IMG/VR virus record: IMGVR_UViG_3300042402_003577
Coordinates: 1 to 64,000 of that record
Origin: a virus
Direction: 5' to 3' (one strand)
Length of the DNA stretch: 64,000 nt
Below the pieces are notes generated by a model. That model saw nothing but the letters and a program-made list of their open reading frames with translations. It did no database searches and was not told the origin of the DNA. The stretch's first letter is position 1; each line of letters opens with the position of its first letter. A program made the translations under genes and the position numbers. Shown here in pieces: positions 35,343-37,672 of this stretch.

Positions 35343-36560
35343 CTATATAAATATGTGAGTTAACCTTGCCACTTGTCCAAACTCTTTATGGTGAATAAAT
35401 CCTTCTATCGCCTTTGGTACTCCTGTATACCCATTTCTATGATGCCAGCTATCTGAAGCACTAGGACTTCTTAAACTTTCAATTGTTACTCCTATATGGT
35501 CCTTAGAGGTCTTGTGGTGTACATGGTGAGTATAAATATATCTATGCTTGCATTCACTCCATTCTTTTGATTCGTGGGCCATTAACAAAGGCAAATCATT
35601 TTGTTTTGCTCCATCCCCATGAGTTGTACCTATTAGGTTATTATGATACTTATAATACTTTCTATGTGCAATAGAGCAATCAAAAGTAATATTATCACAG
35701 TTTCTAAACCAAGTCTTAATCACATCTGCTAAGAAAAAGCCGTTAGTATAGTCATGGTTCGATGGGTTGAATGTAAAATGAACATCTGCCACTGGTATTA
35801 GCATCATTAACACATCTACATATAGCTGCTTTGCTACCAAGAAATTAGAATACCACATACCATCAGTGTCTTGTGGAGTACCGCTTGTTGTAGTTCTCCT
35901 TGGATTATCAGTGTGCAAAATATCATTTCCTGCTACAAAAATAATTTGGTCAATATTAAACCCTGATGTTTTATCCAAAATACCTTGTACCCCTTTTAAA
36001 ACTCTTTCTACCGCAATATTTACATTATATTCATCCCCTGTTTCAAAAGCCATAGCTAATTTACCGATATGAATATCCGCAGGATCTATTATCAATAGAT
36101 GGCCCTCACTACTAGGGGTTCTTTTTATTACAGGAAAAGAAGGAGAAAAACTTTGTAAATCTTCTATTAGTTCATTATAGAATCCATCTTCTTCTTTTTT
36201 CTTGTATAAAGGATTAGTAAAGAACATTGAAGCATCTTGTGTTTTTAACCACCCATGCTTTACATCTTCTACAGGCAATCCTAGTTTTTTACTTTCTTGG
36301 TAGATAGCATTTAATTCTTTAACTGTATCCACCATCTCTGTAGGAACCCATACATTAGTCCCTTCATTTATTTTTTCTTTTACAAAGGAATTTTTTCCTG
36401 ATTGTTTCAGTAAGAAATTTAATTCTTCTGGACATAGGTTAAACCCTTCTCTGTTTAGTCTTTTAAGTAAAGTTTTTTTACTCGGTCTTCCAAATTGTAG
36501 ATAATTTTGATTGTTTTCTCTCCAATTTAAAAATTTATTTATTGTTTTTTGTGCTATCAT
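35343..36560 (-). CDS. Calcineurin-like metallophosphoesterase with an N-terminal extension
   Basis: Motifs DIHIG, GNDILH, SNHD, THGD, HHVHH. Confidence 0.85.
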   Translation of the reverse strand: MIAQKTINKFLNWRENNQNYLQFGRPSKKTLLKRLNREGFNLCPEELNFLLKQSGKNSFVKEKINEGTNVWVPTEMVDTVKELNAIYQESKKLGLPVEDVKHGWLKTQDASMFFTNPLYKKKEEDGFYNELIEDLQSFSPSFPVIKRTPSSEGHLLIIDPADIHIGKLAMAFETGDEYNVNIAVERVLKGVQGILDKTSGFNIDQIIFVAGNDILHTDNPRRTTTSGTPQDTDGMWYSNFLVAKQLYVDVLMMLIPVADVHFTFNPSNHDYTNGFFLADVIKTWFRNCDNITFDCSIAHRKYYKYHNNLIGTTHGDGAKQNDLPLLMAHESKEWSECKHRYIYTHHVHHKTSKDHIGVTIESLRSPSASDSWHHRNGYTGVPKAIEGFIHHKEFGQVARLTHIFI

Positions 36561-36576
36561 TATTATAATTTTTATG

Positions 36577-36625
36577 CAAAAGTAATACTTTTTTTATTTA
36601 TCGCACATATTTTTTTACAAAAGTA
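36577..36625 (-). promoter_or_regulatory. Two tandem -7 promoter boxes upstream of the phosphoesterase
   Basis: TACTTTTG on the minus strand at 36577-36584 and 36618-36625. Confidence 0.55.
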
Positions 36626-36655
36626 AAAAAAAATTATGATTTTATTAGTTTTTAT

Positions 36656-36697
36656 AAAAAAAATACCCCTTGCTTAAAGGGAATCAGCAAGGGGTAT
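36656..36697 (-). terminator. Rho-independent terminator
   Basis: Minus strand ATACCCCTTGCT-loop-AGCAAGGGGTAT followed by a T run. Confidence 0.8.
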
Positions 36698-36730
36698 CCG
36701 ATAGAATTGCTCTATCTTTATATTTATCTC
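36656..36730 (-). ncRNA. Candidate ~70-nt small RNA
   Basis: TATCTTTG box at 36734-36741 followed by a GATAGA/TCTATC hairpin and then the terminator; no ORF. Confidence 0.4.
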
Positions 36731-36909
36731 ACGCAAAGATACTACTTTTTTTTTAATTAGAAGAAAAAAAATGTATTTTTTGTGATTTTTTAACATAATT
36801 ATGGCATATTACTAGAACATAAGTTATAGTATATATATTTAGAAAATAAAAGGTTCTCCCGAGAAAAAATCTAGGCAATTTGAATACTTTGCAATAAACG
36901 CATCTATCT

Positions 36910-37170
36910 TGTTTCTATTGGTAAGTTCGTTCATAAAACTCCATATACATTTCTGTACTTAGGAATATTTACTATCGTGTATTTTATAGGAAATTGGGAA
37001 GCCCAATTCTTACGTCTTTTGATCCTATTTTTTCCTCTCCTTCCCTAAAGGTATCTAAATTGTTAATCCTCGGAGGTCCTTACTTATTTAAAACTATCTA
37101 GTGAAATCTTATGAACCAGGGTTTCCCCTCAAACGTCAGGCACCAGAAATTTGTCTCAGTGAGATAAATA
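36910..37170 (-). ncRNA. Candidate ~260-nt structured non-coding RNA
   Basis: Own promoter, a 15-bp long-range helix (37102-37116 with 36929-36943) containing G-U pairs, and two GAAA-tetraloop hairpins. Confidence 0.5.
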
Positions 37171-37175
37171 TTCTG

Positions 37176-37205
37176 CAAATATACCTCTTTTATTTTATTT
37201 GTCAA
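37176..37205 (-). promoter_or_regulatory. Canonical Bacteroidota housekeeping-sigma promoter
   Basis: TTG at 37203-37205 and TATATTTG at 37176-37183, with no long ORF downstream. Confidence 0.65.
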
Positions 37206-37210
37206 TAGTT

Positions 37211-37672
37211 TTATTTTATTTTTATTCCAAAAGCAATACCAACACCAGGCTGTATACCTTGTGGGGTAAAGGATAGAGTTGGACCAGCTATTAAAGAAAA
37301 TTTATTTCTTGCCTGCAAATATTGTATATGTTTCACTCTAACTGTATCCCTTACAAGCATTGTTTTGATTAAAGTATCTGATTTAACTATTACTTTATCA
37401 CAGTTTGTAAGGGATGTTTTTAGGGCTACTACTAAGCTGTCACAAACAGAATCTTTACCTGCAACATATCTTTCATCTATCTTATATACAATCTCTTTGG
37501 ATTTAATGTAATGATCTTTCACCACCTCTCTTTCCACTATCAATGTGTCAACTTTTCTAGACAAACTGTCTTCTAGTCTTTGTATAATAGCTTCATCTTT
37601 GGCAATAGTGTCTTTTGAAATCCACATATATACTCCTAGTAAAACAATAAGAATTATAAATAAATATTTCAT
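37211..37672 (-). CDS. Spanin-like lysis protein
   Basis: N-terminal TM helix, coiled coil and C-terminal amphipathic beta-hairpin; last gene of the lysis cassette. Confidence 0.55.
   Translation of the reverse strand: MKYLFIILIVLLGVYMWISKDTIAKDEAIIQRLEDSLSRKVDTLIVEREVVKDHYIKSKEIVYKIDERYVAGKDSVCDSLVVALKTSLTNCDKVIVKSDTLIKTMLVRDTVRVKHIQYLQARNKFSLIAGPTLSFTPQGIQPGVGIAFGIKIK

Follow-up and report, generated by a model that had tools for sequence, protein, structure and literature searches.

The 64,000-nt stretch of viral DNA analyzed here, referred to as the window, is part of an IMG/VR virus record (IMGVR_UViG_3300042402_003577) of 105,849 bp that is rated complete. The minus-strand genes of this genome include terminase, portal, major head protein, tail-fiber genes, an endolysin, and very large virion proteins, and by the major head protein its closest cultured relatives are crAss-like phages of Flavobacterium, Bacteroides, and Cellulophaga, at ~32% identity. 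On that strand, a 650-nt gap (37210-36561) is flanked upstream by the endolysin gene and two small open reading frames (ORFs) that have no PHROG match and look membrane-protein-like, a group that we read as a lysis block, and downstream by a 405-aa phosphoesterase/exonuclease gene. The upstream 153-aa ORF stops at 37211, ahead of a promoter that we call P1. We conclude, with a probability of roughly 0.85, that the gap holds a real structured RNA gene of an uncatalogued family, about 250 to 330 nt long. An earlier note on this DNA had proposed a promoter-driven, structured, uncatalogued non-coding RNA on the minus strand, and this core of its claim holds given the covariation within the fold, a conservation above that of the neighboring genes, and the presence of element contigs in RNA libraries; the long-helix architecture that it proposed does not. 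The parts of the element are listed below, with RNA positions numbered as p = 37176 - coordinate along the minus strand and with pair counts referring to 12 DNA variants of the element.

37176-37205, minus strand: promoter P1, with TTGACA at 37205-37200, a 16-nt spacer, and TATATT within TATATTTG (37183-37176)
37153-37172 (p4-23), minus strand: 5' leader, with a small hairpin UCUC-ACU-GAGA
37097-37147, minus strand: domain 1, with a 7-pair stem UCUGGUG (37147-37141)/CACUAGA (37103-37097) paired in 12/12
37118-37129, minus strand: GAAA hairpin AGGG-GAAA-CCCU, with the GAAA loop at 37125-37122
37079-37083, minus strand: 5' strand GUAAG of a long-range stem predicted by RNAalifold, with its partner CUUAC at 36925-36921
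37043-37076, minus strand: domain 2 arm 1, CCU..GAGGAUU - loop - GAU.CCUU..GGG, with 10 pairs kept in 12/12
37028-37042, minus strand: purine-rich linker AAGGAGAGGAAAAAA, of which AGGAGAGG is invariant
36987-37027, minus strand: domain 2 arm 2, with a UAGGA/UCCUA stem, a 14-nt bulge, and an AAUUGGG-CUU-CCCAAUU hairpin
36928-36977, minus strand: domain 2 arm 3 (receptor arm), with the receptor, a GUACA-GNRA-UGUAU cap, and a covarying lower stem
36902-36927, minus strand: 3' part, with CUUAC (36925-36921), the tail CAAUAGAAACA, and AGAUAGAU (36909-36902)
36841-36860, minus strand: weak terminator-like hairpin GGG-AGAA-CC(U), followed by a U-rich run

The promoter that the earlier note had placed on the minus strand is present, matching the sigma-70 consensus at 11 of 12 positions, and TATATTTG also fits the Bacteroidota -7 box, TAnnTTTG. 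This -7 box is invariant across all relatives and the -35 box is kept, as TTTACA in the relative L106. Only three TTGAC-N-TAnnTTTG sites occur in the 105.8-kb genome, P1 being one of them, and they could represent a small set of particularly strong promoters for the host polymerase. Outside the window lie the other two full promoters of this type (G000 70412-70383, minus strand, and 90670-90699, plus strand), which have almost the same sequence and directly precede the genes for a 90-aa protein with a signal-peptide-like N terminus and a 183-aa protein. From P1, transcription is predicted to start near 37172. Conservation begins directly after the promoter and falls off past ~36900, and the conserved core runs from ~37150 to 36905 (~245 nt). 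The primary 3' end is probably at or before the weak hairpin at 36860-36841, for a transcript of ~330 nt; the GGGAGAACC(C) of this hairpin and its U-rich tail are preserved in all relatives, and it was not among the calls of a terminator scan. Identity of the leader in relatives is 85-100%, and the leader pair C13-G21 appears as C-G, U-G, U-A, and once as C-U. The 5' part of the leader, AUUUAUCU, can alternatively pair with AGAUAGAU in the 3' part, which is able to pair with leader positions 37169-37162; every sequence retains the closing helix of 8 pairs, in which three one-sided and no double changes were seen.

Relatives of the element were gathered from IMG/VR and JGI contigs by word scans and a neighbor-gene search, yielding the 12 DNA variants after removal of duplicates, and two further variants, X3 and X4, were rebuilt from the difference tables of RNA-library contigs to give 14. 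All homologues belong to one narrow freshwater crAss-like clade, and three records rated 100% complete (106, 120, and 140 kb) carry one copy of the element per genome. A search for distant homologues with nhmmer and a covariance model, across ~77 loci around related phosphoesterase genes, returned chance-level matches only, and exact-word scans of IMG/VR, JGI metagenomes, and GTDB genomes returned the same narrow clade plus chance matches. Word matches in Prochlorococcus, Bacteroidales, and ~4.3-kb contigs were rejected as chance. Nothing matched the gap in a blastn search of 50,697 phage records. Within the clade, the 5' core (p24-133) is 94-98% identical where the flanking genes of the same relatives are 57-97% identical. 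The segment p24-104 (37152-37072) is invariant over the 14 variants save four variable positions and shows no change even in X3/X4, the most divergent lineage; for domain 1, the exceptions to invariance over the 14 variants are U70 and U72.

The comparative model of the fold comprises 63 pairs, with 98.3% of cells paired over the 12 DNA variants. Seven pairs are doubly changed, compared to 0-1 in controls with the partners slid by 1-3 columns, and an eighth (G105-U128 to C-G) is found in the X3/X4 lineage, which is known from RNA contigs only. At least four lineages contributed these changes (L104/L101, the L093 group, L092/L106/L127, and X3/X4). The RNA strand is fixed by G-U pairs and GNRA loops, given that 99.6% of the model cells are paired on the minus strand and 88.8% on the plus strand, in agreement with the earlier assignment. 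The short hairpins that had been pointed out (GGG-GAAA-CCC, UACA-GAAA-UGUA, and AAUUGG/CCAAUU) are all present, and each carries compensatory changes.

In domain 1, the stem encloses two invariant internal-loop strands and the GAAA hairpin, in which A-U replaces G49-C56 in L104 and L101, and G-U replaces G48-C57 in L104, around a loop that is the same in all variants. Domain 2 is closed by the GUAAG/CUUAC stem, both strands of which are invariant, and thus covariation cannot test it; the adjacent A92/C256 changes jointly to G/U in L101, which is a hint only. The change at G105-U128 falls in arm 1, whose tip is shorter by 4 nt in the rebuilt X3/X4 sequences. The junction preceding AGGAGAGG varies in length, no pairing partner was found for the linker, and the 14-nt bulge of arm 2 holds the invariant GACGUAAGA. 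Arm 2 also shows U149-A189 replaced by C-G in L092, L106, and L127, as well as U170-A182 replaced by C-G in four sequences with U-G intermediates in three others. In arm 3, two adjacent pairs of the cap stem are doubly changed beneath a loop that reads GAAA, GAGA, or GUGA, and in the lower stem two pairs are changed on both sides and two on one side.

This architecture replaces the one proposed earlier, in which 37116-37102 pairs over 15 bp with 36943-36929. That helix is present in the minimum free energy fold of the window but is not conserved in relatives, where we found no compensatory change, 13 unpaired cells, and, in three relatives, a 1-nt deletion in the 3' arm. A helix of this length arises in only 5 of 300 dinucleotide shuffles. 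The long helix is optimal in the window lineage alone (the window, L086, and L104), by a margin of 2.4-2.9 kcal/mol over the local stem; imposing it on the seven other lineages carries a penalty of 1.3-11 kcal/mol, and there the local stem is part of the optimum, in full in five of them and with 8 of its 11 pairs in L092 and L106. Changes at p237-243, in the 3' arm of the long helix, are matched by changes at p204-211, giving two doubly and two singly changed pairs and placing this arm in the local receptor stem. The outer helix that had been thought to close the whole element (UUUCU-GGU with ACC-AAU-AGAAA) was not retained either. Its pair G32-C256 is broken in 6 of 11 sequences by a change of G32 to A, and C30-G261 is broken in L101 by a change of G261 to A, while G32 or A32 pairs with U76 in every sequence within the 7-bp stem of domain 1.

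The receptor arm contains a feature that had not been described in the earlier note, an 11-nt GAAA-tetraloop receptor formed by CCUAAG (36963-36958) opposite UAUGG (36945-36941), matching the published definition of the motif (PMC2615604). The pairs C213-G235, C214-G234, and G218-U231 are formed in 12 of 12 variants, as the motif requires, and no variant departs from the receptor letters. A single occurrence of the pattern was counted in the 64-kb window, against 0.64 expected overall; by simple arithmetic, the expectation for a 270-nt stretch is ~0.001. The only loop that is fixed as GAAA is that of the covarying GGG/CCC hairpin of domain 1, and the cap loop of the receptor arm drifts among GNRA sequences. 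Given that an invariant GAAA loop sits on a covarying stem and the receptor is itself invariant, we infer that the loop of domain 1 docks in the receptor of domain 2, either within one molecule or between copies. Two invariant GACGU motifs were also seen, at 37137-37133 (p39-43, in the internal loop by the GAAA hairpin) and at 37016-37012 (p160-164, in the bulge of arm 2). We speculate that their ACGU palindromes might provide a further contact by pairing with one another or across RNA copies.

These contacts bear on the possibility that the element is a self-assembling ornate RNA like ROOL, GOLLD, or OLE, held together by intermolecular loop-receptor docking and GACGU kissing. Phage-associated large RNAs form homo-oligomers through A-minor and kissing contacts (PMC12286853), and the element has parts that such an assembly could use, namely a single invariant GAAA loop, a single receptor, and a pair of invariant GACGU motifs. 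At ~250-330 nt, however, the element is half or less of the size of those RNAs, it has no Rfam match, and the sequence data do not distinguish intramolecular from intermolecular docking, so that we regard this form of the RNA as rather unlikely.

Metatranscriptomes from three freshwater or riverine studies hold contigs of the element (236, 246, and 184+151 nt). Contig X2 extends over 36915-37149, X4 over 36906-37151, and X3 over 36968-37152 and 36864-36986; X2 and X4 thus lie wholly within 36906-37151. The X3 contig continues past 36864 into CGGG-AAAA-CCCG-CUAUUU, matching the conserved GGG-AGAA-CC(C) and U-run at 36860-36841. In X1, a 151-nt piece spans the promoter and is possibly DNA or read-through. 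None of the contigs in X2-X4 extended over the flanking genes, although a stretch without cover in such data carries no evidential weight. The contigs are compatible with processing of a ~330-nt primary transcript into a discrete, stable RNA of ~245 nt, and their common start at 37149-37152, downstream of the leader, is a weak hint of a processed 5' end.

Both the contig ends and the tertiary clamp could be read as signs of a ribozyme, either self-processing or acting on another RNA, in which the clamp and the 80-nt 5' domain make up a catalytic core and the leader (37172-37153) is possibly self-cleaved. Clamps of a GAAA loop with an 11-nt receptor are typical of large ribozymes such as group I and group II introns and RNase P, and one is predicted here. 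The near invariance of 37152-37072 would suit a catalytic core, and the start of three RNA-library contigs ~20 nt past the predicted transcription start is weakly suggestive of cleavage. However, the contig starts lie 3-6 nt from the polymorphic position p21, at a site that resembles an ordinary A/U-rich RNase cut site, and the clamp is also used by many non-catalytic RNAs. No ribozyme family in Rfam matched at E<=10, and there is neither an interrupted gene nor a candidate substrate. We consider a catalytic role doubtful.

Searches against known RNAs and for coding capacity agree with the absence of a catalogued family. The longest ORF in the region is <=35 aa, as the lack of a long ORF in the earlier note had implied, and a small-ORF reading was rejected: the 31-aa and 35-aa ORFs are not conserved, X3 and X4 carry single-base indels, and L092, L106, and L127 lack the start codon (ATG) of the 31-aa ORF. 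ARAGORN found no tRNA or tmRNA, including tRNA halves. A search of Rfam 15 (4,227 families) with 36840-37180 and 36500-37300 gave no match to the element at gathering scores or at E<=10, in line with the earlier expectation, and among the covariance models without a match were those of 6S RNA, tmRNA, RNase P RNA, SRP RNA, phi29 pRNA, riboswitches, and small ribozymes. The group I intron model RF00028, which is known to miss some introns, did not match at E<=10. The element is not within an interrupted gene, the ~150-aa ORF being full-length in relatives that lack it, and no intron P1 helix with U-G at the 5' splice site, P3-P7 pseudoknot with a G-binding site, or terminal G was evident in the comparative model, where no systematic pseudoknot search was made. 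ROOL, GOLLD, and OLE likewise gave no Rfam match, and the ~245-nt core compares with a size criterion of >=580 nt.

Several observations weigh against a functional RNA and have to be set beside the comparative evidence. By the earlier note, a folding energy no better than that of dinucleotide-shuffled controls would count as refutation, and this is what we found: the whole element is no better than shuffles (z = -1.19), with 22 of 200 folding equally well, so that the case rests on comparative evidence instead. The homologues are all close (mean column identity, 93%), many pairs never vary, and the alignment set is shallow. Five of the doubly changed pairs trace to the single lineage L092/L106/L127 and count as few independent events, and neither the long-range GUAAG/CUUAC stem nor domain 1 has a double change. 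RNA libraries can contain DNA, and so presence in them does not prove transcription. The contigs are assemblies and not reads, and their ends (p24-27; p261 and p270) fall near the polymorphic sites p21, p261, p267, and p272, such that they may be assembly breaks instead of true RNA ends.

The ordinary folding energy and the closeness of the homologues are what would be expected if the gap were a recently shared spacer with chance hairpins in A+T-rich DNA and no functional RNA. That explanation would have to account for a core more conserved than the coding genes on either side, for eight doubly changed pairs compared to 0-1 in the slid controls, and for a perfect, invariant receptor together with an invariant GAAA loop, a conserved promoter, and contigs in three RNA studies. 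We hold it to be very improbable.

The position of the RNA gene among its relatives points to an accessory element. In ~40 relatives, the ~150-aa ORF abuts the phosphoesterase gene, with a gap of -11 to +30 nt and no element between them. In L008 the slot is a 122-nt gap and in L007 it holds a 371-aa ORF (1774-2889), a pattern that, among the sequences compared, makes it look like a preferred site for accessory insertions. L007 and L008 are relatives with a 77-78% identical phosphoesterase, and both lack the RNA; by eye, the 371-aa ORF of L007 has two similar PAS-like repeats and a hydrophobic tail. In the RNA-bearing clade, the slot is occupied by a 650-nt cassette made up of P1, the RNA, the weak hairpin, a second promoter with a short terminated RNA, and one or more restart promoters. 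Given that it has its own promoter and terminator and is inserted between genes that abut in most relatives, the cassette, whose main cargo is the RNA gene, is a moron-like accessory insert, a build that speaks against a core role of the RNA in replication or packaging. Its features downstream of the RNA are as follows.

36741-36734, minus strand: second TAnnTTTG box TATCTTTG, preceding the ~75-nt short RNA
36697-36655, minus strand: strong terminator, with its stem at 36697-36663 and a T-run to 36655; the stem covaries in L092, L106, and L127
36625-36618, minus strand: extra TAnnTTTG box TACTTTTG, within the near-invariant run TTTTTTTTTACTTTTGTAAAAAAA
36584-36577, minus strand: TAnnTTTG box nearest the phosphoesterase start codon, with the TACTTTTG box 40 nt upstream

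The last two boxes may serve as two restart promoters for the operon. The 13-nt loop of the strong terminator retains a C-rich core, UUCCCUUU, and conservation is lacking in the 5' half of the small RNA. Weak Rfam matches to PyrR and LhrC fall on this terminator and not on the element. In L090 (IMGVR_UViG_3300020151_000934), the endolysin, the promoter, and the RNA align with the window, and the upstream 86-aa and 153-aa ORFs do not, which suggests, from this one alignment, that the small lysis-block genes may be exchanged independently of the RNA cassette.

The order of promoter, large structured RNA, weak and strong terminators, and long same-strand operon is also that of a cis-acting leader, riboswitch-like or based on antitermination, which would govern read-through of 36860-36841 and 36697-36655 into the phosphoesterase and cargo genes; the extension of one RNA contig from the core into the weak hairpin would fit such a leader. 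The downstream operon, however, has conserved TAnnTTTG boxes of its own at 36741-36734, 36625-36618, and 36584-36577, and in relatives it runs without the element. The spacer at 36899-36741 is the least conserved part (64-85% in most relatives), and no riboswitch family matched. We regard control in cis as unlikely. A role as a base-pairing regulator was dropped as well. The leader segment AUAUUUAUCUCAC (37171-37159) and the first part of the small RNA, GUGAGAUAAAUAU (36732-36720), are perfect complements over 13 nt, with a match of 10-11 nt in L090 and the L093 group and none in L092, L106, and L127. The longest antisense matches in the phage genome are 13 nt (54485, 39354, and 36732), about the length expected by chance in an A+T-rich genome of 106 kb.

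Placement between the structural/lysis block and the next block, behind a strong promoter, could likewise indicate a part of the core phage machinery, either a replication primer or origin transcript or a packaging RNA like that of phi29. Close relatives with the same flanking genes nevertheless lack the element, an ordinary large terminase is present, and the pRNA model in Rfam gave no match. Cumulative GC skew runs straight through 36-38 kb with no turn, and the replication-origin reading was rejected on this basis. We find a core-machinery part very improbable.

We therefore return to the RNA gene of an uncatalogued family and to how it could act. In our working model, the host RNA polymerase would read the gene from the minus strand via the near-consensus P1. 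Domain 1 (37147-37097) presents the GAAA tetraloop and domain 2 (37083-36921) folds as a multi-arm junction that includes the receptor arm, and docking of the loop in the receptor would lock the two domains. The RNA would be abundant and stable and would act in trans, its invariant 80-nt 5' domain being recognized by, or recognizing, a conserved partner during infection, such that the RNA would serve as a decoy or scaffold directed at a host or phage protein. The 80-nt letter-for-letter conservation, the accessory slot, and the strong promoter are the reasons that we tentatively favor this trans-acting, partner-binding role, to which we nonetheless give somewhat less than an even chance. A bolder version, which we think unlikely, is an effector RNA with a locked fold, catalytic or self-assembling and made from one of the phage's strongest promoters, whose invariant 5' domain would inactivate or take over conserved host machinery, for example a defense protein or a component of the translation apparatus.

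Among the phages of Bacteroidota, the crAss-like group ranks with the most abundant, and several of its members produce non-coding RNAs that are likewise abundant and have no explanation. The family described here is narrow, being confined to one small freshwater clade with no cultured host. Its size of ~250 nt suits structure work and the tertiary clamp offers a handle for mutate-and-rescue experiments, and because the RNA is accessory, a clean deletion should be viable. Should a decoy, ribozyme, or self-assembling function be confirmed, the known ways in which phages deal with their hosts would gain one that is based on RNA, and if the RNA is an effector, it would be an RNA counterpart of the protein morons found in such slots.

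The element can be compared with several known systems. One likeness is to P4-P6 of the Tetrahymena-type group I intron, in which the GAAA loop of L5b docks in the J6a/6b receptor. The receptor letters are the same (CCUAAG/UAUGG) and stand beside a hairpin, and P4-P6 likewise has a GGG(G)-GAAA-CCC/CUUU-type hairpin with a fixed GAAA loop, for which we infer the same role of clamping two helical stacks. Unlike a group I intron, the phage RNA lies outside genes, shows no splice-site helix or recognizable P3-P7 core in the comparative model, has no Rfam match, and orders its helices as domain 1 followed by a multi-arm junction. What is shared with P4-P6 is a single tertiary motif, which is no evidence of common descent. 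ROOL and GOLLD (RF03087 and RF01998; cryo-electron microscopy, PMC12286853) are likewise phage-borne, promoter-driven, intricately folded, built with A-rich and GNRA elements, and accessory, but at ~580 and ~800 nt they are larger than the ~250-330 nt seen here, and they share no sequence or covariance-model match with the element. The pRNA of phi29 (RF00044) is also a stable, structured RNA that is encoded by a podovirus, has its own promoter, and makes RNA-RNA tertiary contacts, which are predicted here; it differs in that our element does not match its model, accompanies a standard large terminase, and is missing from close relatives. Cellulophaga phage phi14:2, which is crAss-like, produces abundant early long non-coding RNAs from its g004-g005 and g005-g006 gaps (bioRxiv 10.1101/2020.03.07.982082). 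Those RNAs belong to the early region of a marine phage with a virion RNA polymerase, and the blastn search with our gap matched no phage record; the parallel is with a crAss-like phage of Bacteroidota whose intergenic RNAs outnumber most mRNAs and have no known function. Taken beside these systems, the element is a new RNA family within a known kind, that of phage-borne structured RNAs whose role lacks an explanation.

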